Assembly (NCBI GenBank): GCA_045630665.1
Contig: JAZQTI010000035.1
Coordinates: 1 to 32,366 of the forward strand
Length of the DNA: 32,366 bases
DNA from: Candidatus Scatovivens sp.
Lineage (GTDB): Bacteria > Bacillota > Clostridia > TANB77 > CAG-508
Direction of reading: 5' to 3'
A model generated the notes under the pieces. It was given only the letters and a program-made list of their open reading frames with translations. It was not told the origin of the DNA and did no database searches. Positions 3,809 through 27,614 of this stretch are shown one piece after another (the first letter of the stretch is position 1; every line of letters begins with the position of its first letter). Both the position numbers and the translations under genes were made by a program.

Positions 3809-4282
3809 TTATTTTAAGTGAAAAAACTTTATGCCTGCTTTTTCTTCCATTAATTTTAAATAAATATATTTTTGAATACCCATATAATATTTTGACGCTT
3901 CTTTTTCAAAATATTCATAATCTTCTTCATATAGATTTATTTTTATTGTTTTAGTTCTTCTTTTCTTTATTATTCCTTTATTTGTTGGATATTTATATTT
4001 AGGATAATATTTACCATTATATACTGTATTATAACCAATATCATTTTTATAAGACATATATTTACCAATGTAATAATTTTCTATTTCGTCAGCAATTTCT
4101 TCATCAACATTATCTTCTAATATTATATGTTCTACATTTTCCCAACCATATTTTTGTACTGCATCTTTCATTGCTTTTTGGTCATAACAATTTCCATTTT
4201 TCCATCTTTTTTCACAATTTGATGTTTGGCCTATATAAATTTTCCCATTAGGAAATTTGTGCATATATATATATTTTTTCAT
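3809..4282 (-). CDS. GIY-YIG endonuclease with C-terminal RHH-like domain
   Basis: YIY...KIYIGQT...RW and a later E fit the GIY-YIG catalytic pattern. The C-terminal TIKINLYEEDYEYFEKEASKYYMGIQKYI is RHH-like. Confidence 0.8.
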   Translation of the reverse strand: MKKYIYMHKFPNGKIYIGQTSNCEKRWKNGNCYDQKAMKDAVQKYGWENVEHIILEDNVDEEIADEIENYYIGKYMSYKNDIGYNTVYNGKYYPKYKYPTNKGIIKKRRTKTIKINLYEEDYEYFEKEASKYYMGIQKYIYLKLMEEKAGIKFFHLK

Positions 4283-5719: not shown

Positions 5720-6631
5720 TTAATCAGTTGTTTTTGTATATTCTATTGTGCAACGGCAAGGTTTATTATCATATCCTTTTCCAAATAACGAAACAGTATG
5801 TTCAACAGTACTATATTGTATTAATGAATAAAAATTTGAATTTGCATAAGCACCAATTTGATGCCAACCATTTGCATAACTAACTACTCCATAAGCATTC
5901 GTTAGCATTTCAATATTTGTATCTGTTAAGAGTGTAGTGTTAGTATTTGCTCCTAAAATATTTAAAAGTGTGCGTCTATATAAAGGTTTACCGTCAATCC
6001 AAATCCCTATTCTCTTTTCGATTGTTGAATATACATCTATATTTTCATATTCTTTATGTTCTACATAATCAGTAGCAGTATTACCTTTTTCCATTTGTAA
6101 TTTGCATTTGTAATTATCAAGAGTAGTTCCATTAGGTATTCTTAAAATATTTAATGTAATTGAAATATCAGCATTAAAACTATTAGTAAATGAAGTATTA
6201 TTTTCATTAAGTAATAAAGTAAAACCTTGATAATTATAATTTGCGTCTTGTAAATATATTGTACAATTTTCTGTTGTACTACCACTTACATAAGTGCTTG
6301 AAAATGTATATTGTGTACCACTTTTAAATTTCATTTTATTAAATGGTGCTAAATTAATATCAGTTCGTGCTGTTGCTGTACCATTAATTGTTAATTCATT
6401 TGTGCTTATATCATAAGTTGCAGTTATTCCATTTGATGTAGTTGTTGCAAATGTACTCATATCAACCATATTTTTCCCTGTTAATCCATCAACAATAATA
6501 TCTCCCATTGCTTTGTTACCTAACAACATATCATTATTATCTTTTATACCTGTTTCAATATTGTTTAAATTACTTGCTGTAGTAGGAGTATTTGTACTAG
6601 GCAAATTCTCCCAATTTGTTTTTACATACAT
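5720..6631 (-). CDS. Tail fibre / receptor-binding protein
   Basis: N-terminal KTNWENLPSTNTP..A.NLN.IE.GI, GKN...QMEKG.TATDY carbohydrate-binding-like module, YST.E.RIG.WIDGKPLYR and C-terminal IEYTKTTD; last tail gene. Confidence 0.75.
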   Translation of the reverse strand: MYVKTNWENLPSTNTPTTASNLNNIETGIKDNNDMLLGNKAMGDIIVDGLTGKNMVDMSTFATTTSNGITATYDISTNELTINGTATARTDINLAPFNKMKFKSGTQYTFSSTYVSGSTTENCTIYLQDANYNYQGFTLLLNENNTSFTNSFNADISITLNILRIPNGTTLDNYKCKLQMEKGNTATDYVEHKEYENIDVYSTIEKRIGIWIDGKPLYRRTLLNILGANTNTTLLTDTNIEMLTNAYGVVSYANGWHQIGAYANSNFYSLIQYSTVEHTVSLFGKGYDNKPCRCTIEYTKTTD

Positions 6632-7329
6632 AATTTTTCCTCCTTTAATGTATAATTAAGTTTTGCACTTTTTTGTAAATTATCTTGTGCTTTTAATAAT
6701 TGTAAATTAGAATAATGGCATAATTTTATTACATCCTCTTCAGTTTTTGCAGTTGCTAGAGGAATAATATGGTCAATATGAACAGGTTCTTTTTTGTCCC
6801 ATTCATAGCCATAATTATTTTTAAAAGTATCTAACAAATAAGAATAAAAGTAATCAAATGAACAACCAAGAATATCTTTTGTTTTACACATTTTCCTATA
6901 ACCTTTCTTTTGAAAACAAACTCTAATATTTGTTCTTATTTGTTTTTTTATTTTAAATAAATTGTCCGAGTGAAACCTTATATTTTCTCTTTTACTTATA
7001 TTTTTTCTATTTTTTTTATTTCTTAATCTTGCTTTCATATTTAATTCTTCTTTGTTAAGTTCTCTATTTATTTTTCTTCTTTTTTGTATATCATTTTTAT
7101 TTTTTTGATAATAAGAACTCATTTTGTTTAAGATTTCTTCTCTATGCTTTTTGTAATAATTATTTCTTATTGTTTTTTCTATTTGCTTATGTTCTTTTAT
7201 ATACTCATAACGATACTTTTTTTCACATTCTTTACAAGTATGTCTATAATGTCCATTATCTTTTCTAACTCTAAATTCTTCTAAAGGTTTCTCTAATAAA
7301 CATTTTTTACATACTTTACTATAAGCCAT
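6622..7329 (-). CDS. HNH homing endonuclease with N-terminal CxxC...CxxC zinc finger
   Basis: CKKC...CKEC; HIDHIIP...HYSNLQLL...N..KS. Confidence 0.85.
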   Translation of the reverse strand: MAYSKVCKKCLLEKPLEEFRVRKDNGHYRHTCKECEKKYRYEYIKEHKQIEKTIRNNYYKKHREEILNKMSSYYQKNKNDIQKRRKINRELNKEELNMKARLRNKKNRKNISKRENIRFHSDNLFKIKKQIRTNIRVCFQKKGYRKMCKTKDILGCSFDYFYSYLLDTFKNNYGYEWDKKEPVHIDHIIPLATAKTEEDVIKLCHYSNLQLLKAQDNLQKSAKLNYTLKEEKLCM

Positions 7330-16952: not shown

Positions 16953-17043
16953 AACATTTTCTCCTTCTTTTATAGACATAGTTTAGTCTTATTCCACTTT
17001 TTTTGTGTCGTGTGCAACTATTGTTCTCTCGAACTCTATAATA

Positions 17044-17080
17044 ATTATACTATAAAATAAAAAAAGTGTCAAAGACACTA
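17044..17080 (-). promoter_or_regulatory. Consensus SigA promoter for the capsid/tail operon, overlapping the tRNA terminator
   Basis: TTGACA (17067-17072)-17 bp-TATAAT (17044-17049). The -35 box lies in the hairpin AGTGTC-TTT-GACACT-T7. Confidence 0.75.
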
Positions 17081-17090
17081 TAATTTCACA

Positions 17091-17164
17091 TGGCAGGGAA
17101 TAAGTGAATCGAACACTTATCAATGGTTTTGGAGACCATGATTTTACCATTAAACTAATCCCCT
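17091..17164 (-). tRNA. trnW: tRNA-Trp (CCA), 3' CCA encoded
   Basis: Acceptor stem AGGGGAT/ATTCCCT, D arm GTTTAATGGTAAAAT, anticodon loop CT-CCA-AA, T loop GTTCGATTC, discriminator G, then CCA. Confidence 0.93.
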
Positions 17165-17176
17165 ATAAAAGCAAGA

Positions 17177-17488
17177 TTATTCCTTGCTTGATTTTTTCTT
17201 TTTAGGTTTAGTAGTTGTTATCTCTGTTTTAACACTAACTGCTTTTTCTAATTCTTCTATTGGTGATTGTGATAATATTTTTATTTCAGGCTCAACCTCA
17301 ATTACTTTAACAACTACTTTATTTAAAGGATTATTTCCTGTCAAATAATCAACCATTTTTTCATCGCATTCAAAAGTATCGCCTTTAAATAATTTACCTT
17401 TTTCTGCTACTGACTTTCTTGTAATGTTTTTCAATTCATTAAACTTTTCTAATGTAAAATCTTCATTAATAACTTCAACTTTTATCAT
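17177..17488 (-). CDS. Hypothetical protein, basic C-terminal tail
   Basis: ORF track; RBS AAGGAGGAG; co-transcribed with GT2. Confidence 0.75.
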   Translation of the reverse strand: MIKVEVINEDFTLEKFNELKNITRKSVAEKGKLFKGDTFECDEKMVDYLTGNNPLNKVVVKVIEVEPEIKILSQSPIEELEKAVSVKTEITTTKPKKKKSSKE

Positions 17489-17501
17489 GCTATCTCCTCC
17501 T

Positions 17502-18554
17502 TTAATATTGTTGATAAATGTTTCTATTTACTCTGCTTATACATTCTTTTACTCTTTTTTGTAATATTGGTATCATTTCTTTATGTTTTAATTGCCCTAT
17601 TAGTTGTAACTGATGACCTATATGACACCACGCACTAGCGTCCCAATAACTATTTCTAACCATTGACACACTATTTGTTGTATTAGTTCTATTCCATACA
17701 TAACAAACTTCTTTTATATTAATTACTTTATCTAAATCATCTATTTGGTCTGCTTGTCTATAACTCCAAACTCTATCTTCCATAAGTGTATCTTCGCAAA
17801 AATAAACAATTTTACTTTTTTTGATAACTCTAGCCCAAGCAGTACACCATACTTTATTATCACTTAAAAAGAAATCTTCATAATTACTATATTGATGAAA
17901 TTTTGTCATAAACACACCATTTTTGTCTATAAGCTCCATTCCTAGCAATGCCATGTCGTGTCCATATAAACGATTATTTATAGTTTCCAATACTTTATTA
18001 TCTTTCCACCAATCATCACTATCTAAAAAAGCAAAATAGTCAAATTCTAAATTGTTTAAAGCATAATCTATACCAACATTTCTGCTTCCACCATTATACC
18101 TTTTTCTTTTATTTTCTATTAAATGGATTCTTTTATCTTTCTTTTGATATTCCTTTGCAGTTTCAACTGATGTGTCAGTAGAGCAATCATCAACTATTAT
18201 CAATTCAAAATCTTTATAAGTTTGATTCAATATACTTTCAATACAATTTCTAAAAAATGATTTACCTTTATAATCACCACGATCATTATTACAATTTGGA
18301 ACTATTATTGCAAATTTATAATTTATTTTATCAGGTAATTTATCAAAATCTTTTTCATTTATATTAGATTTTTTTAAACAGTCAACTTCATAATTAGTTA
18401 AATTTATATCTACAAATTTACAATTTTTATAATAAATACAATGTAATCCTGTCTTTAATAAATCTTTATAGTTTTCATCATCAAACAAATATATATAATC
18501 ATTATTATTTTGCTTAACTACGCTTATACTATTTTTATCAACTGCTATTTTCAT
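17502..18554 (-). CDS. Glycosyltransferase family 2
   Basis: IIVP..N, CIESILNQTYKDFELIIVDDCSTD, SRNVGI, FLDSDD (DXD), ED. Likely start is ATG 18554. Confidence 0.92.
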   Translation of the reverse strand: MKIAVDKNSISVVKQNNNDYIYLFDDENYKDLLKTGLHCIYYKNCKFVDINLTNYEVDCLKKSNINEKDFDKLPDKINYKFAIIVPNCNNDRGDYKGKSFFRNCIESILNQTYKDFELIIVDDCSTDTSVETAKEYQKKDKRIHLIENKRKRYNGGSRNVGIDYALNNLEFDYFAFLDSDDWWKDNKVLETINNRLYGHDMALLGMELIDKNGVFMTKFHQYSNYEDFFLSDNKVWCTAWARVIKKSKIVYFCEDTLMEDRVWSYRQADQIDDLDKVINIKEVCYVWNRTNTTNSVSMVRNSYWDASAWCHIGHQLQLIGQLKHKEMIPILQKRVKECISRVNRNIYQQY

Positions 18555-18571
18555 ATTTATCACCTAAATTA

Positions 18572-18612
18572 ATTATACCATATCAAACAAAAAAGGACAA
18601 ATCGTGTCCTTT
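18572..18612 (-). promoter_or_regulatory. Terminator plus SigA promoter in front of GT2
   Basis: Hairpin AAGGACA/TGTCCTT-T-run overlaps TTGTCC-17 bp-TATAAT with extended TG. Confidence 0.65.
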
Positions 18613-18970
18613 AATCAATTTTCCAAATATATTCAATTTTTTTATCAGTGCAATCCCACGTGTCTATAATATATCCATTAACACACGCTGTTATATGATT
18701 ATTAGTAGTTATTAAATATTTTCCAATAGGGTGATTTTCTGCAAATTCACCTATATATGTTTCAATATATGGAATTCTTTTAAATTTATTATCTAAAAAA
18801 CCCCTTACAAAAACAGCGTTGTCCATCATTTGACCTTGTTCCATTGCACTTTTACATATTTCTCTATATGCTTCTTTCCAAGTTATATCCATTACTATCG
18901 AATATGCCCTAGGAAAGCAGTCATCAATAAAATTATTATGACTATTTGCATTGTAGTAAAAATATCGCAT
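18611..18970 (-). CDS. Hypothetical protein, possible Cys-His-Asp peptidase-like fold
   Basis: DC..RA, HITAC and DTWD motifs; last gene of the accessory operon. Confidence 0.6.
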   Translation of the reverse strand: MRYFYYNANSHNNFIDDCFPRAYSIVMDITWKEAYREICKSAMEQGQMMDNAVFVRGFLDNKFKRIPYIETYIGEFAENHPIGKYLITTNNHITACVNGYIIDTWDCTDKKIEYIWKID

Positions 18971-18971
18971 A

Positions 18972-19445
18972 TTATCTCATACTTCTTTGTAATGTTTCAT
19001 TAAGCATTTGTTTCTTTTGTGGTGTATCTGCTTCCTCATGTAAGAAATCTAAATATTCTCCTAATGCTTTTGCCATGAAATGAAATGCTTTATCAGATTC
19101 TTCTCCTGCTCCGTATCTTTCTCTTGATTCCATATATCTACCATATTCGTTAGACATTCTGTCCATGTAATCATCACCACGATATCTCATATCACGTCCT
19201 CTAGCACCATAGTTTCCTCTGCCATAGTTTCCATAATCCCCATAGTTATCACGCCCATAGCTATCATATCCAGGACGTCTTGCACCATAGTTTCCATAAT
19301 TTCCGTAATTCATATTTTCTTCCTCCTTTGCTATATGATTTATTTTAGTTAGTTTATACAAATGATCTAGATTGTTGGTAGTTATACCTTCGTCTAGTAT
19401 CTTATTTATACTTTCTTCGGTTTTCTTTTCTAACTTCTCGTGCAT
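18972..19445 (-). CDS. Hypothetical protein with central YG/RG low-complexity repeats
   Basis: YGNYGNYGARRPGYDSYGRDNYGDYGNYGRGNYGARGR between helical ends; RBS AAGGAGG. Confidence 0.85.
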   Translation of the reverse strand: MHEKLEKKTEESINKILDEGITTNNLDHLYKLTKINHIAKEEENMNYGNYGNYGARRPGYDSYGRDNYGDYGNYGRGNYGARGRDMRYRGDDYMDRMSNEYGRYMESRERYGAGEESDKAFHFMAKALGEYLDFLHEEADTPQKKQMLNETLQRSMR

Positions 19446-19447
19446 TG

Positions 19448-19627
19448 TTATTCCTCCTTTCTTAAAAGGGTTAATATTTCATCATTTTGCTTGATTATCT
19501 TTTCTAAATAATTACTATCTTGCTTTTGTAACTCTTGCATTAAATCCCTGTTGTTATAGTCTTGTAATAATAAAATAACGCTATACAATTGCAAGATTAA
19601 TGATGTCATATCTAAATTATTTCTCAT
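19448..19627 (-). CDS. Hypothetical 59-aa protein (not in ORF track)
   Basis: MRNNLDMTSLILQLYSVILLLQDYNNRDLMQELQKQDSNYLEKIIKQNDEILTLLRKEE; the start overlaps the upstream stop (TAATG). Confidence 0.75.
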   Translation of the reverse strand: MRNNLDMTSLILQLYSVILLLQDYNNRDLMQELQKQDSNYLEKIIKQNDEILTLLRKEE

Positions 19628-20088
19628 TAAATTCTTGAAATACTAAATGTAGCATTAGTTATAATTGCTTGTGTAGTTGCTATTGGTGTTGTAGGGTCAG
19701 TTGGTGTAGGTACACTTGGAACACTTTGAACTGATATATTAGTAGTTCCACGAGGGCATACTCTTAATTTCTTATCAAATGAAATAGTTTCATAATCATC
19801 GGCAGCTGCAATAGTTACGGCTCTAACTGTATCAGGTATTAGCACTCCATCTTGGAATAGCCCTATTGCTACTACACCAGCAGTCGCAGTACTCACTGAA
19901 GCACTAAATTCTACATCATAATAACCTGTGTATCCATTTCCAAATATTTTAAAATTAGGATTACCATTTGAATAATCTAACCAACCACAACAAGATGCAC
20001 ATCTAGTTCTAACAGTTGTTTCATCAAAAGTTATTGGACTTGCATTACTTGGTAATGCTAATGGTTCATTTATAATTGTTTCTATCAT
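19627..20088 (-). CDS. Beta-sandwich protein, BclA-CTD/C1q-like
   Basis: ITFD, GYYDVEFSASV, VAIGLFQDG..IP, NATFSISRI; Cys cluster CASCCG. True start is ATG 20088 (RBS GAAAGGAG), not 20214. Confidence 0.65.
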   Translation of the reverse strand: MIETIINEPLALPSNASPITFDETTVRTRCASCCGWLDYSNGNPNFKIFGNGYTGYYDVEFSASVSTATAGVVAIGLFQDGVLIPDTVRAVTIAAADDYETISFDKKLRVCPRGTTNISVQSVPSVPTPTDPTTPIATTQAIITNATFSISRI

Positions 20089-20146
20089 TTTTGTTTCTCC
20101 TTTCAATAATTTTGCACAATATTTTAAATATTTTGTGCATTTTTTA

Positions 20147-20179
20147 AAATAAAAGAGAATAGAACTATGCCTATTCTCT
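20147..20179 (-). terminator. Intrinsic terminator after the Gly/Cys-rich gene
   Basis: AGAGAATAG/CTATTCTCT stem followed by TTTATTTT. Confidence 0.7.
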
Positions 20180-20254
20180 ATGCTACCGACATTTGTGTCG
20201 GTACCTGTTAGCAAGTTCTCGTATTCGAGTTAGTTGTATTCAACTTCTATGCTA

Positions 20255-21133
20255 TTAAATAAATTGACTTGTTGTGTTAAATCCACATCCACATCCATTA
20301 TTTCCAGGGCATGTGAAAATTCTTTGATTTCCATAGACTGGTATTGTATTTATTGGGCATGTGGCTAGGCGATTATACAAAGCGTCAACTTCATTGTTTA
20401 ACCCTTGTGCAATAAATGCGTTTTGTGCAGTTTGTGAAGCTTTTAAATCAGCCATTTCAAGTTGTCTTTGTAAATCAGCAATCTTTTCGTTTTTAGCATC
20501 AATTTTGTCATTGCATAATTGGTCTAAAATACGTTGAGTGTTAGCAGTTTGGTTGATTAATACATCTTTTAAACCATCAGCTAATGCTGCTCTATCAGCA
20601 CAATTTTCGCTTAAGATAGTGCTGTTTAAATTAGCAATACCTAAACGATTTTCACAGCAACAGTCAGCGAATTGTCTACTTAATGCAAATGTGTCTTGCA
20701 TTTGGTTCATAGCTCTATTATTAGCGCTTATTTCGCTATTATAGAAGCCATTTGAAATTGCACTTGTTATGTCGCTTGTGCTATTACATATTTGGTTAGA
20801 TAATCCATAAATGCCATCTCTAGCACCTTCTAATTGGTTAGATAAATGTAATGTGTCAAATCCGTTGTTAGTGTTAGTCATAATGTCTTTTTGACCATTT
20901 GAAAGCCAAGCATATCCATTATCAAAACTATTATTACCAAAGAAACCACCATTGCCATTATTTCCCCAACCACCGAATAATGCTAATAATAAGATTACCC
21001 AAATAAAGTCGCTTCCATAACCACCAAAACCATTACCATATCCACCCATCATCATTGGGTATACTGGATAAGCATTGTTATTAGTTGCTAGGTCAACAGT
21101 TGGAACTATTCCTGAGTTTCCGTTCATTTTCAT
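20255..21133 (-). CDS. Gly-rich, one-TM, CCC-motif coiled-coil protein of unknown function
   Basis: GGYGNGFGG-FIWVILLLALFGGWG, ADCCCENR, ILDQLCNDKI coiled coil, C-terminal GCGCG. Start is 21133 or 21127. Confidence 0.85.
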   Translation of the reverse strand: MKMNGNSGIVPTVDLATNNNAYPVYPMMMGGYGNGFGGYGSDFIWVILLLALFGGWGNNGNGGFFGNNSFDNGYAWLSNGQKDIMTNTNNGFDTLHLSNQLEGARDGIYGLSNQICNSTSDITSAISNGFYNSEISANNRAMNQMQDTFALSRQFADCCCENRLGIANLNSTILSENCADRAALADGLKDVLINQTANTQRILDQLCNDKIDAKNEKIADLQRQLEMADLKASQTAQNAFIAQGLNNEVDALYNRLATCPINTIPVYGNQRIFTCPGNNGCGCGFNTTSQFI

Positions 21134-21219
21134 ATCTCCTTTCTATATATTTAAGGTGCTAGAAGCCTTATAGGAAGATATCATTTCTAGCATAATACCC
21201 TCCTATAAAGCTTTTAACT

Positions 21220-21465
21220 TTATTTTTGAGTATTTTGCTTGTTAAACATTCCCATCATTTGTTCCCATTGTTGTCTTTGTTGTGGGTTAAAACCATTTAT
21301 TGTTTCATTTAATAAATCATTTGGGTTGTTATTCTTTCTTGCCTCTTGATATTTTTTGAAAGCCTGTGGATTTTGTGCTTTCAATTGTTTCTCTAATTGG
21401 TTCATCATATTTTGTGGTATTTGTTGTATTTTGTTCTGCATTAACATTTGGATCATTTGCATCAT
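21220..21465 (-). CDS. Small Q/N/M-rich helical protein
   Basis: NPQ...NP repeats; RBS AAAGGA. Confidence 0.75.
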   Translation of the reverse strand: MMQMIQMLMQNKIQQIPQNMMNQLEKQLKAQNPQAFKKYQEARKNNNPNDLLNETINGFNPQQRQQWEQMMGMFNKQNTQK

Positions 21466-21850
21466 TTTTAATCATTCCTTTCAATTCTTCTATTTGCGTT
21501 TGTAAATATTCAATTTGTAAATCTTTTGCGTCTTTTGGTATTATTTCACTTAATTCGTAAGTTTTTATTTCACCTTTTGTATTTTTAATCCATACTACTG
21601 ACATATCTTTGCTAAAATATGGTGTATCACCAACAACCATGTCTCTTTGTACTTCATCAATTGAATTTGCGTATTTTATTACATCACGATTAGTAGGTGC
21701 TAATTGAAAATTTTGTGTTAAGTTGGTAGGTTGTTGTACAGGTGGTTGTTGCATTTGATTTCTCATTTTTTCTAGTTCTGCAATTTGGTTATTTATTCTA
21801 TCTATATTAACTTGTGCATTATATGGATTCATAAATTGATTGTTATACAT
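21329..21850 (-). CDS. Hypothetical protein, Q/P/N-rich N-terminus
   Basis: RBS AGGAGG; globular-looking core PYFSKDMSVVWIKNTKGEIKTY. Confidence 0.8.
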   Translation of the reverse strand: MYNNQFMNPYNAQVNIDRINNQIAELEKMRNQMQQPPVQQPTNLTQNFQLAPTNRDVIKYANSIDEVQRDMVVGDTPYFSKDMSVVWIKNTKGEIKTYELSEIIPKDAKDLQIEYLQTQIEELKGMIKNDANDPNVNAEQNTTNTTKYDEPIRETIESTKSTGFQKISRGKKE

Positions 21851-21865
21851 ATTAGTTCCTCCTAA

Positions 21866-21946
21866 TTAAATAAAAAGAAGGAGTGCATATAGATATCGCA
21901 TTTTTTTGCTAACAATTGGCTCATTGCCTTCTTGTAATTTTTCCAT
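21866..21946 (-). CDS. Putative leader peptide (26 aa)
   Basis: MEKLQEGNEPIVSKKMRYLYALLLFI; RBS AGAAGGAGG. Confidence 0.55.
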   Translation of the reverse strand: MEKLQEGNEPIVSKKMRYLYALLLFI

Positions 21947-22008
21947 CTATATTCCTCCTTCTACTTACTAATTTACTATCCTTTAAAGATACAAAATGAT
22001 ACAACCAC

Positions 22009-22035
22009 AAAAAAAGAACTCTAATTGAGTTCTTT
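22009..22035 (-). terminator. Terminator at the end of the AgrB-like gene
   Basis: AAAGAACTC-AATTA-GAGTTCTTT followed by TTTT. Confidence 0.75.
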
Positions 22036-23232
22036 AATTTTATTATTTATTCTATCTTTTATCTTTTTAATACCTGCTTCAGTATAGTTGTATTTAATAC
22101 TTAAACTTATAGCATTTTTCTTTTTAACAAAATATTCATAACATATTTTGTATTTTATACTATCTTTATCAACTACTTTTAAAATTGTTTCTTCAAACAA
22201 TTCTTCAGGCATTCCTCTATAAAGTGGTTTATACGCTTTCTTTACTAATTTAGATGTAATATAAGATAAACCGACACCTAGCATAATTGGAATGAATATA
22301 CTTATTCCTAATGGAGTAGTAATTCTATTTAAAGTGTAGTAGGTTAAGTTTGAAACAATAAAACATTGTGCCATGCTAGATAAGTGAAATGCTTTGCCGA
22401 ATGTTCGTTTGGTTAGCCAAAATGAAGTTAGTATAAATAAGCATTCTATCAAAGTGTGATTTAATTTTGCTACAAGTAAAATTAACACAACACTTAAAGT
22501 ATTCCAAATTAGACTTAATATAAAATAAATAATATAAGTTAATTTTGTAATTTTATCTAATTTTCTAAAATTACGCAATTTTTCTTGCAATTTTGTTAGC
22601 AATTTCTTTAAGTTTATCTTCTTTAGCAAATAAGAAAATGCTTCCTCCACCTGGTAACATATTTCTCCTCCTCTCAAAAAATACAATTTATATAATATAA
22701 TAATCATAATTAGAAAATCTAAGTTCATTAATAATGATATTGAAAAATTATAACCATTTGAATTTAAACTTTGACTTCTAACTATCATTGATATAAATTG
22801 ACAAAATACTATAAATAAAGTTAATTTCGTAAACTTCTTAATTTGTATTTTTTTAGTTTTAATAAAGTATATTATAATAGTTAATATATAGTCGCTAAAT
22901 ATATGCATTAAAGGATTATTTATTATTGTTTTTAAATATTGAAATATTACTATTAATGGAAACCACATAAAAGTATACAATTTTATTTCTTTATCATTTT
23001 TATTGCACATTATAGAAATGACAATATAAAAATTAATAAAACAATTAATATAAGAAATGATAATGTCTAATTTAAAAACTTTACAAAAATCATTAATTTG
23101 CAAAATTGTAGGATTATTAATATCCAAACCAAAATAATCTAATCCTACTATCTTCATTATAAACACACATACTAATACAAAAAGATACACTCTTAAACTT
23201 GCCGACAAATATTTGTCATAATCTTTAAACAT
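22021..23232 (-). CDS. Polytopic membrane protein: sensor-like TM domain + AgrB-like protease domain + C-terminal HTH
   Basis: About 6 N-terminal TM segments; KRTFGKAFHLSSMAQCFIVS (R-x6-H-x6-C); C-terminal YEYFVKKKNAISLSIKYNYTEAGIKKIKDRI (sigma-4-like HTH). Start is ATG 23232 with RBS GAGGAGGTGA. Confidence 0.75.
   Translation of the reverse strand: MFKDYDKYLSASLRVYLFVLVCVFIMKIVGLDYFGLDINNPTILQINDFCKVFKLDIIISYINCFINFYIVISIMCNKNDKEIKLYTFMWFPLIVIFQYLKTIINNPLMHIFSDYILTIIIYFIKTKKIQIKKFTKLTLFIVFCQFISMIVRSQSLNSNGYNFSISLLMNLDFLIMIIILYKLYFLRGGEICYQVEEAFSYLLKKINLKKLLTKLQEKLRNFRKLDKITKLTYIIYFILSLIWNTLSVVLILLVAKLNHTLIECLFILTSFWLTKRTFGKAFHLSSMAQCFIVSNLTYYTLNRITTPLGISIFIPIMLGVGLSYITSKLVKKAYKPLYRGMPEELFEETILKVVDKDSIKYKICYEYFVKKKNAISLSIKYNYTEAGIKKIKDRINNKIKELN
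22571..22660 (-). CDS. Nested AgrD-like propeptide (29 aa), out of frame inside the AgrB-like gene
   Basis: MLPGGGSIFLFAKEDKLKEIANKIARKIA*; RBS AGGAGG 6 nt before ATG. Confidence 0.55.
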   Translation of the reverse strand: MLPGGGSIFLFAKEDKLKEIANKIARKIA

Positions 23233-23299
23233 TTTTCTCACCTCCTCAATAAAATGAAAAAAGATACCTCGCTAGTATCTTTTTCCACCCCTTGTATTA

Positions 23300-23328
23300 A
23301 TTATACATTTTTAATTTGTACAAGTCAA
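23300..23328 (-). promoter_or_regulatory. SigA promoter of the AgrB-like gene
   Basis: TTGACT (23323-23328)-17 bp-TATAAT (23300-23305). Confidence 0.7.
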
Positions 23329-23661
23329 TTATTTTAATATATCAGTTTTGCTTATTTCCCATTGTTCCATCTTTTTTGCAATTGTATGTATGTATGAGTT
23401 TCCTCCAAGTGATTCATATACCCCTAACATATCCAAAAAATTTTGATAAACATAATCGGGGATAGCTTTAAGTTCATTGTAAACAAAATATGTATTAGTT
23501 AATTGACTTTTTAATAAAGTTTGCAATGCTACATTTTGCAATTTTTCGTTTGAAGTTTTATCTTCAAGTTTCTTTTTGTAATGTTTAATACGACCAACAC
23601 AATAAGTTAAAATACTACCTACAACAAAACTTATTGCCGTATTAATTATTGTTTGTGTCAT
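23329..23661 (-). CDS. Single-TM holin-like/lysis-associated protein
   Basis: N-terminal TM segment; LLKSQL...Y..LGGN motif of a phage family usually found near lysis genes; RBS AGGAGG. Confidence 0.55.
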   Translation of the reverse strand: MTQTIINTAISFVVGSILTYCVGRIKHYKKKLEDKTSNEKLQNVALQTLLKSQLTNTYFVYNELKAIPDYVYQNFLDMLGVYESLGGNSYIHTIAKKMEQWEISKTDILK

Positions 23662-23721
23662 AATTCCTCCTAGTTACTCTTACTGAATAAAATTATAACA
23701 CAATTATCTTTTTTTGACAAA

Positions 23722-23889
23722 TTAGGCTTTTTCTATAATTATTTTATTATCTTTTGAAGTTATTTTAAGTTCCTTGTCTGCTAGATCAGTTTTGTTTACT
23801 ATTTCCTTTGGTATGTTGCATACATAACAATTTAATCTTCTTTCACCTGTTTTAAGTGATTTATACATATTCTTTGCTAGTTTTGGCAT
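23722..23889 (-). CDS. AbrB/MazE-like small protein (55 aa, not in ORF track)
   Basis: MPKLAKNMYKSLKTGERRLNCYVCNIPKEIVNKTDLADKELKITSKDNKIIIEKA; RBS AAGGAGG; TAATG coupling. Confidence 0.65.
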   Translation of the reverse strand: MPKLAKNMYKSLKTGERRLNCYVCNIPKEIVNKTDLADKELKITSKDNKIIIEKA

Positions 23890-24077
23890 TATTTATCCTC
23901 CTTTAATTTTCTATATTTATATCCATCTTGAACCAATGAATAAATACTTACATATAATAATTCAATGTTTTCCCACTTTTCAGCTTGTTTGTTTTTATCA
24001 ACTTCCAAATATTCGATTTTCTTTTTGTTAGCATTATTTATTGCATTGATTAAAAATTGTTCTTCTATTTCTTTCAA
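23889..24077 (-). CDS. Hypothetical protein
   Basis: ORF track; TTG start with AAGGAAGT upstream. Confidence 0.55.
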   Translation of the reverse strand: MKEIEEQFLINAINNANKKKIEYLEVDKNKQAEKWENIELLYVSIYSLVQDGYKYRKLKEDK

Positions 24078-24078
24078 T

Positions 24079-24342
24079 TTACGACACTTCCTTTTCTAAA
24101 TTTCTTCCACACATAGGACAATAATTTATCTTTTTACTTGTTAAGCAATCGCTTGATTTAAACCAATCAGGTTTATCATAATAAGTTAAATTATCAGCCC
24201 ATAAAACTAATTTGCCTCTATCAATTTCTAGCATAACATCTATTTCATTTTTAAAACTTTTATCAATTATTCTTTTATTTGCTTCTTCTTCAAAACTTTT
24301 CTTTTTACTGCAATATTGACATTTCATTTCATTCCACCTCAC
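24079..24342 (-). CDS. Small Cys-rich (CxxC...CPMCG) zinc-ribbon protein
   Basis: MKCQYC...INYCPMCGRNL; the start is probably the internal ATG at 24327. Confidence 0.7.
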   Translation of the reverse strand: MRWNEMKCQYCSKKKSFEEEANKRIIDKSFKNEIDVMLEIDRGKLVLWADNLTYYDKPDWFKSSDCLTSKKINYCPMCGRNLEKEVS

Positions 24343-24595
24343 TTTTATAAAGCTTTATATCTTCCTCTGTTATATTTGTTTGACCATTACTACTCATAAG
24401 CACTTTGTTGTATAATTCGTTAGGATATTTTTTGAAAAACAATGATAATTCATTTTGATATAATTCATTTGCCAATTCTGCATTTAAACATATAGGCTTA
24501 TCAAGTTTTTTATTCTTTTCTGCTACATACCACCACATTACTTTTGGAACTGGTGTCCCTGTTTCAGGAAAATTTTTAAATATTATTATTTTCAT
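24329..24595 (-). CDS. Hypothetical protein
   Basis: ORF track; ATGA coupling and RBS AAGGAGG. Confidence 0.7.
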   Translation of the reverse strand: MKIIIFKNFPETGTPVPKVMWWYVAEKNKKLDKPICLNAELANELYQNELSLFFKKYPNELYNKVLMSSNGQTNITEEDIKLYKSEVE

Positions 24596-25002
24596 ATTTC
24601 CTCCTTAAATAAATTTTCTATCTTTTGCCATTCTTCTTTTGTAATAATTCCACGATCATATTTTTCTTGTAAGTTATAATAACATTGTTTTAGGTATCGG
24701 TTGTTGTGTTCTGGGTAATATAAAGGAATTTCACTTTCATAATTAATTTCACTATCACAAAAAGCTAATATTTCATTGTAATATTTTTGCTTATATTTAA
24801 TATTTCTCTTTAGCAATTCCTGTGTTAATTGCCATGAATATTCCATGAAATACTCTTTACTATGTTCCATAACATAACTAACCAACCTATGTTTCAGTGT
24901 TCCTTTCTCCCATTGTCTTTTAATTGCTATACATTCTCTCCATTGACTAACTAACATTGCATTAGGTAGCACTGGAATTAATTTATAATGCCACAAACGC
25001 AT
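24592..25002 (-). CDS. Pyrimidine-dimer DNA glycosylase / endonuclease V-like protein
   Basis: MRLWH..LIPVLP...LVSQWRE...H..V.Y...E..KR...PEHN.RY...C..NL..K. Start is ATG 25002. Confidence 0.75.
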   Translation of the reverse strand: MRLWHYKLIPVLPNAMLVSQWRECIAIKRQWEKGTLKHRLVSYVMEHSKEYFMEYSWQLTQELLKRNIKYKQKYYNEILAFCDSEINYESEIPLYYPEHNNRYLKQCYYNLQEKYDRGIITKEEWQKIENLFKEEI

Positions 25003-25055
25003 TATCTCACCTCTTTCTATAATCATATTATCATATAATTATATAGTATGTCAAT

Positions 25056-25081
25056 AAAAAAAGAACATATTTCTATGTTCT
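25056..25081 (-). terminator. Terminator closing the HNH/structured-RNA transcript
   Basis: AGAACATA-GAAA-TATGTTCT-T6, followed immediately by a TTGACA promoter box. Confidence 0.8.
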
Positions 25082-25087
25082 AAATAG

Positions 25088-25565
25088 GATACACGACCGA
25101 AGTCGTAGTATCTCTGGTCTAAAGACATCATTGTCGAACCATTAAACCAGTGCTATTTTATAAGCACTGTACCAAATTCAAGTATATTCATCTTTCCAAC
25201 TAGTATTGTATACTTGTAATTCAGTACACTACCTATAAAAGATAGTGATAAAATAAATAGACTAATCACATTACTCGTTATACCTTCAACATTCTAAGCA
25301 CCACTGTATAACAATACGGTAGGAAGGTGGCTTTCTTCCTCGTGATATTTACCATTTTCACTATTTATTTTAGTTACCAAATAGATATTTACTAGCACCA
25401 CTAGATACACTAGGCATTGGGTTTTATATCTCCATATCTATTTGCATTAATTAATAGTGCCTATTATAAGCACCATTGAATAGATATTTTCGCCTAACTC
25501 CAAATGAAGTGCATTTTACAAGGGCTTATTGTAATATATCTACTCAATGCTGATTATAAATCAGC
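25088..25565 (-). ncRNA. Candidate large structured non-coding RNA
   Basis: About ten abutting stems, a C(UUCG)G hairpin, and mismatches that resolve as G-U only on the minus strand; no ORF of 60 aa or more in the track. Confidence 0.6.
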
Positions 25566-25896
25566 CTCTATTTTTTAATTGTTCTTTATATGTTGCCCAT
25601 CTTAAATTAGAAACATTATTATTTATCTTATTTCTATCAATATGGTCAACTGTTGGTTTGTTTTCAGGATTATCAATAAACAATTCTGCAACCAATCTAT
25701 GTATAGCATAATATTTAACCTTACCATTATTATATAAAGGTAATCTATAATAGCCTTTATTTGATAGTGTTGGCTTTTTAATGGTTTCTACACATTTTCT
25801 TTTTTGCATCATTCTTGATAAACTTTTAACTCTACCAAGATTACTTACTTGATATAACCCCTCATAATTTGGTATGTCTTTCCATACTTCTTCCAT
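25561..25896 (-). CDS. NUMOD4-HNH endonuclease
   Basis: EVWKDIPNYEGLYQVSNLGRVKS; IHRLVA..FI.NP...VDHIDRNKINNNVSNLRW. Start is ATG 25896. Confidence 0.9.
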   Translation of the reverse strand: MEEVWKDIPNYEGLYQVSNLGRVKSLSRMMQKRKCVETIKKPTLSNKGYYRLPLYNNGKVKYYAIHRLVAELFIDNPENKPTVDHIDRNKINNNVSNLRWATYKEQLKNRG

Positions 25897-25899
25897 ACA

Positions 25900-25985
25900 T
25901 AACACCTCCCGAATAAGTGTTAAGGGAAGTAATTCGGGTACTTCCCCACAATTTAATTATATCACTTCTTTTTCTTTTTTGTCAA
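25900..25985 (-). promoter_or_regulatory. Promoter and two-hairpin leader of the HNH gene
   Basis: TTGACA-18 bp-TATAAT with extended TG; two hairpins with complementary 7-nt loops. Confidence 0.7.
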
Positions 25986-26213
25986 TTGATATGGGTTTTC
26001 TAATTCTTGTTTATATTCCATAAATTGTTCTTTATTCATTATATTTTTGTATGGTATATCCATATTTTTTTTATTATCTCTTTGAATAATAAGATAATAC
26101 CCTAATGGATACCCCCTCATGTAATCTTCTATTGTATCTATTATATCTCTTTCGTTTTCACTAATATCTAATAATTTCCAACCTGCTATGTTCCCGTATA
26201 ACTTATATTCCAT
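25962..26213 (-). CDS. Hypothetical protein
   Basis: ORF track. Confidence 0.65.
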   Translation of the reverse strand: MEYKLYGNIAGWKLLDISENERDIIDTIEDYMRGYPLGYYLIIQRDNKKNMDIPYKNIMNKEQFMEYKQELENPYQLTKKKKK

Positions 26214-26379
26214 TTTTATTCTTCTTTCTTAATATTTTTATATTCTCACTATATTCTTTTTCTTTTAGAAAAGCATTTATATTTATTATTAATTCAACTC
26301 TGTCAACTTCGTCCATCTTTGCTTCCTTTAATGCTTTTATAATAACATTTCTTGCTATTATTAGACTTTCTTTGTCCAT
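26203..26379 (-). CDS. Hypothetical 58-aa protein (not in ORF track)
   Basis: MDKESLIIARNVIIKALKEAKMDEVDRVELIININAFLKEKEYSENIKILRKKNKNGI; RBS AGGGTGA; upstream TTGTCA/TATAAT boxes. Confidence 0.6.
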   Translation of the reverse strand: MDKESLIIARNVIIKALKEAKMDEVDRVELIININAFLKEKEYSENIKILRKKNKNGI

Positions 26380-26435
26380 AGTATCACCCTAAAACAATTA
26401 TACAACACATATTTATTTTTGACAAATTAAAAGAA

Positions 26436-27614
26436 CTAAACCCTAGTTCTTCTATAACCACTGACTGTAAGCCTATTTTTATATGTATCTAACCCAATTT
26501 TTTTACTAAAATCATTGTATTTATTAGTTAATTGGCTTATTTTTTGCTGTGCAAGCCCTATTTCTTCTTTATCGCCACTAGCACGTGCAATGATTTGCCT
26601 ATCTTTTTGTTGCCTAATAGCAGTTTCTAATTTCCTTTGAACTTGTGTGGCTTCATACTTAGTATATGTTTTTCCTTCATATTCAACTTTAGTAGTGCTT
26701 TCTTGCTCCATTTGTCTTAATTGTTTTTGTGTATAACTTGGTTGACTTACACCTAATACTATACTAAATACAAAATGTCGACAATTATATTCTCCAATAG
26801 GTCTTTCAAGGCTATCATTTAGTTTTTTAAATTCCTTATCACTAAATTGTTTACCTTGTATTGGTAAATGATCTTCTGCACATGGACTATGTGCCGATAT
26901 TTCTACACCATTAGCACCAAAACCTTTTCCTACTTCTTCTTGAATACTTATATTTATTTGTCGTATTCCTGTAAGAATATCTTGCCTTATACTACTATCT
27001 ATTCGTCGGTTATAACCATTTTTATATGCCATTTTTTCTTCATGAACTTTTACACCACTATCAGCAAGTTGGTTTATTGTGTTTCTCATAGCACTTTGAT
27101 AATCACTAACACCTGTTTCAACATTAAAAACTGCTTCGTCAATTAAATCATTGTAAATTTTTTTTAATGGTTTATATGTAGCATTACCTTGACTATCTTT
27201 TAAAACAAAACCTATATTGTTTGAATTAGATAAATTTATAAATGTTTCATCAGTTTGTTTTTTTATTGCTTCAACTAAATTTTGCAATTGAGAATTATCT
27301 TCATATTTAACAAATTCTTTATTTTTTGCTTTAAAATAAACTTCACTAAATTCTACATTTTCTTCGGCAACTTTATCAAATAAAACTTCTATATCTTGCA
27401 CTGATTTACCACTTATTTTTGATAATTCTAATAATAATTCATTTACATCATATCCAAGTTTTAATTCCTGTGCTAATATATGTGCTTGACTAGGAGAAAT
27501 GCCGTCAAATTGTTTAACGACATTCCCTAATTTTTGTAACACCTTTGTATTATATTTGTTGTATCTAATATAAAACTTTTCTAATACTTTATCTAATTTT
27601 TGTTCATCTTGCAT
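26436..27614 (-). CDS. Minor capsid / head morphogenesis protein (Phage_min_cap2-like)
   Basis: VEISAH...EDH...QGK, YNCRH, YEATQVQRKLETAIR..K; follows the portal gene. Confidence 0.88.
   Translation of the reverse strand: MQDEQKLDKVLEKFYIRYNKYNTKVLQKLGNVVKQFDGISPSQAHILAQELKLGYDVNELLLELSKISGKSVQDIEVLFDKVAEENVEFSEVYFKAKNKEFVKYEDNSQLQNLVEAIKKQTDETFINLSNSNNIGFVLKDSQGNATYKPLKKIYNDLIDEAVFNVETGVSDYQSAMRNTINQLADSGVKVHEEKMAYKNGYNRRIDSSIRQDILTGIRQINISIQEEVGKGFGANGVEISAHSPCAEDHLPIQGKQFSDKEFKKLNDSLERPIGEYNCRHFVFSIVLGVSQPSYTQKQLRQMEQESTTKVEYEGKTYTKYEATQVQRKLETAIRQQKDRQIIARASGDKEEIGLAQQKISQLTNKYNDFSKKIGLDTYKNRLTVSGYRRTRV

Follow-up and report, generated by a model that had tools for sequence, protein, structure and literature searches.

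What kind of element occupies the gene-free stretch that follows a small NUMOD4-HNH homing-endonuclease gene on contig JAZQTI010000035.1 of Candidatus Scatovivens sp.? The window, by which we mean the whole 32.4-kb contig (32,366 nucleotides (nt)), belongs to a metagenome-assembled genome (MAG) of 1.5 Mb with 27% G+C, and looks like a siphophage genome with every gene on the minus strand. The stretch in question, 25568-25088 on the minus strand, lies between the stop of the HNH gene (25561) and a clean terminator (25080-25056), as an initial sequence-only reading had placed it. That reading had proposed an ornate RNA of ~480 nt, unannotated and non-coding, or else an array of processed small RNAs, built from a repeated three-hairpin unit with variable loops. 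The structured region and its repeated module have stood up to analysis; the ~480 nt do not form one single fold but are an array of modules, here designated A, B, C, D and E. Comparison with relatives indicates that the repeated module is very probably a genuine structured RNA family in uncultured gut and rumen phages of Bacillota-type hosts. As to its role, we tentatively propose that the module acts in cis, as a cassette by which non-coding RNA operons of phages are processed and stabilised.

An array of hairpin modules behind the HNH gene

The minus strand of 25040-25600 was folded and gave a minimum free energy of -148.5 kcal/mol, compared with -113.9±5.8 kcal/mol for shuffled sequences (z = -5.95; none of 100 shuffles was as good). 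The fold reproduced the stems that had been listed as tiling the region. The plus strand of the same region folds nearly as well (z = -5.84) and the region is rich in inverted repeats, so that folding energy alone cannot name the strand.

The three-hairpin unit that had been noticed twice is indeed present twice, as both occurrences are matched by covariance model R1 (described below). Unit A (25454-25568, minus strand; 77.4 bits, E 4.6e-13) is a complete type-1 module, in which hairpin H1 (25565-25549, with a variant sequence) is followed by a long stem (25549-25474) and hairpin H3 (25473-25457). Unit D (25147-25249, minus strand; 36.8 bits, E 9.4e-5) is a complete type-2 module with H1 at 25247-25227, the long stem at 25228-25168 and H3 at 25168-25149; its H1 and H3 are near-identical to those of two related phage loci, L048 and L102. 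The other three elements were delimited by the minus-strand fold and do not match model R1. Hairpin B (25378-25444) has perfect 11-nt arms at 25378-25388 and 25434-25444, and is a degenerate module, its stem resembling the upper part of a type-1 long stem without H1 and H3. Element C (25249-25372) is a branched hairpin closed by a perfect 12-bp stem (arms 25249-25260 and 25361-25372). One partial match each was found among the fetched loci for B (L312, 87% over 45 nt) and C (L430, 79% over 61 nt). Element E (25088-25146) consists of two short hairpins, the second with a cUUCGg loop (25112-25088); it had no match in the fetched loci and is specific to the window.

The sequence-only reading had suggested a comparison with Rfam, and no family reached its gathering score in the array. 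At gathering score, Rfam 15 recognized only a tRNA (17094-17164) in the whole window, and a permissive scan of 24900-25750 (E ≤ 10) returned six matches, the best at 18.6 bits against a gathering score of 70. ARAGORN identified no tRNA-like gene in the array region. CRISPR-like repeats were considered and rejected, the only match being CRISPR-DR38 at E 7.1. Among GenBank phages there was no similarity to the region or the module. A DNA search of 200 genomes of the host family gave only matches of 20-70 nt with E 2.5e-5 or weaker, which we took as chance, and model R1 found no match in 150 host-family genomes (25 candidates scored per genome). Exact complementary words of 11-14 nt in the window were no commoner than in shuffles, so an antisense role within the phage is unsupported.

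Pairing in 170 copies of the module

A search of IMG/VR with the neighbouring Pyr_excise-like protein gave 35 loci. In one of these, L048, the minor head gene is separated from the next gene by 450 nt of structured sequence (z = -7.0). This locus lacks an HNH gene, shares the two modules and the kind of terminator found in the window, and has its own promoter. With a loose H3 pattern as the query, the matches listed were mostly chance ones, and longer motifs were used instead. The exact 3' motif of type 1 was present in 119 IMG/VR stretches and the exact 5' motif of type 2 in 117. Covariance model R1 was then built on a seed alignment (A2) of 21 type-1 modules including unit A, with unit D outside the seed. 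The seed was restricted to type 1 because a MAFFT alignment of mixed type-1 and type-2 units (A1) shifted the 5' side by 2 nt. On the two motif-derived sets, model R1 gave 192 and 147 matches from 161 sources, antisense echoes included; as the module is nearly palindromic, each copy is accompanied by a weaker antisense echo (77.4 vs 47.4 bits for unit A). Keeping the better strand and removing duplicates left 170 distinct copies in at least 119 distinct IMG/VR loci. In the 118 loci for which copies were counted, 78 have one copy, 32 have two, seven have three and one has four. On bacterial genome contigs, model R1 confirmed 24 of 44 pattern matches, nearly all in gut or rumen MAGs (Bacilli, 'Tenericutes', Erysipelotrichaceae, Coprobacillus, Clostridia and others); the 20 unconfirmed matches came from unrelated phyla and were taken as chance.

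Each module, ~75-250 nt in length, has a long stem with an unconstrained tip, flanked by two short hairpins, H1 on the 5' side and H3 on the 3' side. The long stem has 14 bp of free sequence, and 97.0% of its 2380 cells in the 170 copies are paired. Pair 4, for example, is GC in 103 copies, CG in 43, UA in 16 and AU in seven. The model-fitted alignment gave 94.7% paired cells for H1 and 93.7% for H3. When alignment A4 was examined as a whole, 22 of 24 pairs changed on both sides and 93.7% of cells were paired, compared with 73.3% in shuffled alignments, and none of 500 shuffles was as high. The MAFFT seed alignment A2 gave the same picture (97.4% paired, 10 pairs changed on both sides, none of 500 shuffles as high). 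The covariation expected among relatives, had the first reading been right, is thus present, with many compensatory changes. That reading had also noted G-U on the minus strand in place of A-C on the plus strand. The same asymmetry holds for the family: the long stems contain 204 G-U cells and 19 A-C cells, and pair 6 alone is G-U in 133 of the 170 copies. This asymmetry indicates that the helix is selected on the gene strand, most simply as RNA.

At the base of the long stem, conserved segments follow on the 5' side (roughly UUAUAGGUAGC) and on the 3' side (roughly GGUGCUUAUAA), and these two segments can fold in two ways. By pairing with each other, they extend the stem to a ~25-bp rod that contains a single conserved G-G mismatch. 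In the other arrangement, each of them folds onto a short outer arm to give H1 and H3, whose A/U-rich loops are mutually complementary. The rod extension joins H1, through its loop and 3' arm, to the 5' arm and loop of H3. Of the 11 positions of this extension, ten are paired in at least 94% of copies, and the remaining one is G-G in 166 of 170. The loop-loop part displays double compensatory changes (pair 7: AU 135, GU 21, UA 7, GC 3; pair 10: UA 146, AU 13). Rod pairing (at least nine of ten pairs) is kept in 164 of 170 copies, including 14 of the 15 that are unable to form H3 and all seven that are unable to form H1. Nearest-neighbour energies favoured the rod in 140 copies, with a median of 3.8 kcal/mol. 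Prediction and covariation together give the rod 14 + 11 pairs with one G-G mismatch, to be read against a criterion of ~20 bp of continuous double-stranded RNA. At the same time, a complete H1 (5/5 pairs) can be formed in 147 of 170 copies and a complete H3 in 112, vs 20 and 17 with shuffled flanks. From these counts, the universal core of the module is a ~25-bp rod with a conserved base, and both flanking hairpins are selected as well and compete with the base of the rod.

It had been suggested that the UUAUAA loops could kiss. Their complementarity is in fact kept by compensatory changes, but the same pairs fit an extended rod equally well; they could represent either a kissing contact or the end of the rod. 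Such contacts are familiar from purine riboswitches, in which the loops of P2 and P3 kiss. We considered a different reading, in which the module is a compact trans-acting RNA: H1 and H3 would stand side by side under the long stem with their loops kissing, or palindromic loops of the UUAUAA type would join different molecules or modules into assemblies of higher order, as happens with ROOL and GOLLD, and the conserved base would offer a protein, or other RNAs of the same island, a place to dock. Compensatory changes in both H1 and H3 are consistent with such a fold, as is the covariation of pairs 7 and 10, and the three-hairpin form leaves neither G of the rod's G-G 'mismatch' unpaired. In addition, some modules adjoin ROOL RNAs, which assemble into RNA-only cages via kissing loops (10.1101/2024.12.08.627333). 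On the other hand, the copies that cannot form H3 or H1 still keep the rod pairing, and the nearest-neighbour model, which ignores tertiary contacts, prefers the rod in most copies. No partner protein is conserved beside the arrays. We consider a trans-acting RNA possible but on balance doubtful.

Tips, neighbours and a possible role

The tips of the long stems are hypervariable: their lengths run from 3 to 161 nt (median 61), and BLAST sorts those of the 170 copies into 133 clusters. A T-loop-like motif ends 11 of the 170 tips. ARAGORN or Rfam identified a tRNA within the tip in L102/L178, L111, L195, L249, L217, L294, L359 and L317, where the upper stem serves as the acceptor stem. Four tips recognized by the tRNA model are 118-124 nt long (L111 1439-1562(-), L217 1284-1401(+), L317 1285-1408(+) and L359 1840-1963(-)) and carry ~45-67 extra nt in the anticodon or variable region; these may be tRNA-like RNAs with an insertion. 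When Rfam was applied to 53 related loci, the modules themselves matched nothing, and matches were confined to the tips (tRNA) or to neighbours (ROOL, skipping-rope and one group I intron).

The modules also abut other RNAs. Of 119 loci, 23 have a tRNA gene outside the modules at a distance of no more than 300 nt, and in each of the 33 tRNA-unit pairs the two elements have the same orientation. The CCA end of a tRNA-Ile meets the start of the H1 loop in eight loci, the last bases of the tRNA being the outer arm of H1, and a tRNA-Leu starts at the end of the H3 loop in two loci. In L234, L235, L313, L323, L338, L342, L346 and L372, the last five bases of tRNA-Ile(UAU) before the terminal A pair with the conserved 3' arm of H1, which means that the 3' end of the precursor tRNA could sit in the hairpin. 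ROOL RNAs lie 2-8 nt from a module in three dense islands of tRNAs, ROOL and modules (L236 1629-2226(-), L340 1625-2209(+) and L366 1858-2461(-); 152-192 bits). A skipping-rope RNA (RF02924, 51.9 bits) was found at L124 439-520(-), on the L304 contig, between a promoter-like site and a type-2 module, with a full-length NUMOD4-HNH gene upstream. A group I intron (66.5 bits) is present at L199 2216-2453(+), ~1 kb downstream of the module array.

Concerning protein-coding neighbours, the two nearest upstream open reading frames (ORFs) were inspected in 86 loci and included head-morphogenesis, minor head or portal genes in 26 loci, phrog_36 regulators in seven and Holliday-junction resolvases in four. 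Scaffold and major head genes are common downstream. The module accounts for many 'empty' gaps between head-morphogenesis and scaffold genes in gut and rumen phages. In a simple scan, a terminator-like site was found within 100 nt after the last module in 36 of 113 arrays, compared with 20 of 238 random places.

A location before scaffold and capsid genes raises the question of a cis-regulatory leader resembling a riboswitch or attenuator, in which pairings 1:2 and 3:4 on the one hand and 2:3 on the other would set terminator read-through into those genes. The four-segment scheme with its mutually exclusive pairings would suit this, as would the terminators that often follow the last module and the common position ahead of the scaffold and major head genes. 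However, no U run follows H3, and the terminator, a hairpin of its own that comes 0-60 nt later, does not overlap with the module. Tandem modules, and those located between tRNAs or next to ROOL, have nothing to regulate, and in the window another promoter comes after the terminator. A leader function is, in our judgement, very unlikely.

The array is modular in its distribution as well as in its fold. L022, L024 and L032, close relatives, have no gap at the place where L048 and the window have an array, and the positions of arrays in the genome vary among loci. In contigs from other metagenomes, 25082 is connected to 25455, and 25247 likewise to 25455, through different intervening letters, which indicates that modules are exchanged at their borders. 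Might the modules then be mosaic DNA of a selfish or neutral kind? As palindromic cassettes, they would spread by recombining at the ends they have in common, would be targets of homing endonucleases and would have no function of their own for the phage. This would agree with the variable presence among close relatives, with breakpoints that fall exactly at module borders, with modules at different genome places, and with the HNH or GIY-YIG genes beside the arrays of the window, L304, L211, L247, L225, L370 and L423. A neutral palindrome, however, would not keep the strand-specific G-U excess, would not preserve the helix through many different stem sequences, and would not keep its co-orientation with all 33 nearby tRNAs. 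Neither a target-site duplication nor a linked transposase or integrase was seen. We regard this explanation as rather improbable.

Taking these observations into account, we return to the proposal of a processing and stabilising cassette. In the primary transcript, H1 and H3 would present their A/U-rich loops at the borders of the module, and these borders coincide with the starts and ends of neighbouring tRNAs and ROOL RNAs. Cutting at the loops would free the ends, which could re-pair into a closed rod that protects both termini and displays the apical cargo. The rod itself would be long enough to act as an RNase III-type substrate. The conservation of two mutually exclusive folds would follow if the cut ends close into the rod. 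As a whole, this is the best explanation we can offer, and we give it somewhat less than an even chance.

Several points weigh against it. The pair counts from alignments A3 and A4 lean towards the modelled structure, as both were fitted to that structure and include antisense echoes, and counts in general overstate the number of independent events, many copies coming from related phages. The three-hairpin form is also under selection, given that H1 and H3 are far commoner than in shuffled flanks, and a kissing-loop fold accounts for the loop-loop covariation no less well than the rod does. The promoter and terminator scans were simple home-made scripts and are weak motif scanners. ROOL was found in only three of 40 loci scanned, and this frequency, together with that of the nearby tRNAs, means that punctuating neighbouring RNAs cannot be the whole story. 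Nor is cargo essential, as some tips have only 3 nt.

A more specific version of the processing cassette is a bistable 'RNA cassette', in which cuts in the loops would release a blunt, exonuclease-proof rod with an exchangeable payload as its hypervariable tip (tRNAs, tRNA mimics or other small RNAs). We consider this version unlikely. If true, a common conserved socket would allow phages to express small RNAs used in conflicts with their hosts or with rival phages, and to exchange them, and would be an RNA-level analogue of gene-cassette systems, alongside ROOL and tRNA islands.

Among known systems, RNase III processing stems (rRNA operons, and transcripts of phages T7 and SP82) come close to the proposed role: a leader and a trailer form a helix that carries cargo at its tip, at the borders of transcript units. 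The module resembles them in having a long helix with tip cargo at unit borders, its rod being a predicted one. To our knowledge, RNase III stems have no counterpart of the conserved base, the G-G mismatch and the alternative flanking hairpins of the module. The tRNA cluster of phage T4 encodes two stable RNAs, species 1 and species 2, of unknown function, one of which is cut by RNase III, and harbours the homing endonuclease SegB. Here the likeness is in setting only, namely small stable RNAs together with tRNA genes and a free-standing homing endonuclease gene; the phage group and the host are different.

ROOL (RF03087) and GOLLD (RF01998) are likewise structured RNAs of phages and prophages, of unknown function and found near tRNA islands. 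They have no match to the module in sequence or fold; they are ~580-800 nt long with multiple pseudoknots, compared with a simple rod or three hairpins, in tandem arrays, for the module. GOLLD contains a variable linker that sometimes holds tRNAs (10.1101/2024.12.08.627333), and in this respect its variable internal region resembles the tip of the module. The skipping-rope, drum and related motifs of Weinberg et al. 2017 (PMC5737381) are different families from the module. No description of the module was found in the literature, the supplements of the papers not having been opened. The module is thus a previously undescribed, widespread structured RNA whose setting is of a familiar kind and whose two-state architecture is unusual.

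Islands of non-coding RNA in phages (tRNAs, ROOL, GOLLD and skipping-rope) are abundant and unexplained, and the module is a new, widespread and simple member. As it abuts the ends of tRNAs and ROOL RNAs exactly, it provides a testable way into the question of how these islands come to be transcribed, cut and stabilised in Bacillota, whose RNA processing differs from that of the E. coli textbook.

The HNH gene and its surroundings

The NUMOD4-HNH gene (25561-25905, minus strand) encodes 114 aa from a GTG, with the likely start at ATG 25896, and was assigned by NUMOD4 (1.3e-16), HNH_3 (3.9e-9) and phrog_59 (3.8e-41). Its stop falls inside H1 of unit A. The protein has the core and ends 26-71 aa before its relatives (140-185 aa). 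tblastn with three longer relatives detected no C-terminal remnant downstream of the core in the RNA region. The short protein is best read as a truncation after the core, and we infer that the deletion responsible also altered H1 of unit A. No group I intron carrying the HNH gene was found: the Intron_gpI model has no match around the gene, and the flanking ORFs are intact and unrelated.

Upstream of the gene, a sigma-70-type promoter (TTGACA-18-TATAAT with TG before the -10 element; 12/12 hexamer matches) is located at 25956-25985 on the minus strand, followed at 25924-25947 (minus strand) by a hairpin, identified from the sequence, that forms the 5'-terminal leader of the HNH cassette. DNA before and within the HNH gene of L304 shows 79% identity to 25991-25822, and 25906-25950 resembles the stretch just before the HNH genes of L304/L124 (95% over 41 nt), L370 (92.5%) and L423 (86%). 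A similar promoter, leader and 5' coding part (79-95% identity) thus precede the HNH genes just upstream of the arrays in L304/L124, L370 and L423. HNH genes of the same PHROG precede the arrays in L211 and L247, and a GIY-YIG gene is near the array in L225. The HNH gene accordingly moves as a separate cassette, together with a promoter and a leader of its own. The promoter at 25956-25985 appears to be part of this cassette and here would also drive the RNA array.

The intrinsic terminator (25056-25080, minus strand) consists of a 7-bp stem with a 4-nt loop (25080-25063) and seven U (25062-25056), and recurs with 96-100% identity in L102, L103, L108, L126 and L026. A promoter-like site (TTGACA-16-GATAAT, 11/12 matches) at 25027-25054 on the minus strand would serve the Pyr_excise-like gene, and marks the end of the RNA transcription unit. 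Promoter, leader hairpin, HNH gene, RNA array and terminator would accordingly form one predicted transcription unit of ~900 nt.

The functional link between the RNA and the HNH protein that had been entertained at the outset found no support in the comparison, as most arrays have no HNH gene, a same-PHROG NUMOD4-HNH gene is directly upstream in three of 86 loci, and the gene comes with its own promoter and leader. The gene reads as a decaying homing-endonuclease cassette that has settled beside a conserved RNA gene, rather than as a partner of the RNA, and provides an example of homing endonucleases settling next to such a gene.

The truncation also bears on a last explanation, namely that the hairpins work at the level of single-stranded DNA, for example as a signal for priming or packaging, or that they are what is left of the C-terminal half of a decayed HNH gene. 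Folding is almost as good on the plus strand, DNA hairpins also tolerate G-T, and the HNH protein is shorter than its relatives. Against this, a consensus promoter and a terminator bracket the array, arrays are always co-oriented with genes and tRNAs, some tips are tRNAs, the three longer HNH relatives found nothing downstream of the core by tblastn, and arrays mostly occur with no HNH gene at all. We judge this explanation to be extremely improbable, and continue to favour an RNA processing cassette.

The phage genes around the array are arranged as follows. On the 5' side, small and large terminase, portal and minor head protein (26436-27614) genes are followed by two small ORFs and the NUMOD4-HNH gene; after the gene-free stretch and the terminator come the Pyr_excise-like gene, ~8 kb of accessory genes with a tRNA-Trp, and the scaffold and major head genes. 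The accessory genes between the minor head and scaffold genes occupy 16980-26435 (~9.4 kb), where relatives have only a module and a terminator. They include the Pyr_excise-like gene (24592-25026), a gene for an AgrB-like membrane protein (22021-23241), a glycosyltransferase-like gene (17502-18563) and the tRNA-Trp (17091-17164), whose flanks contain no module.

Two further nuclease genes are present, a GIY-YIG-type homing endonuclease gene after the lysis genes (3809-4282) and an endonuclease VII-like gene among the tail genes (6622-7329), so that the phage harbours several free-standing endonucleases in addition to the NUMOD4-HNH protein. Finally, a single 473-aa ORF at 989-2410 combines an exonuclease-like N-terminal part with a Sak4-like single-strand annealing C-terminal part (PHROG matches over residues 16-261 and 262-467).

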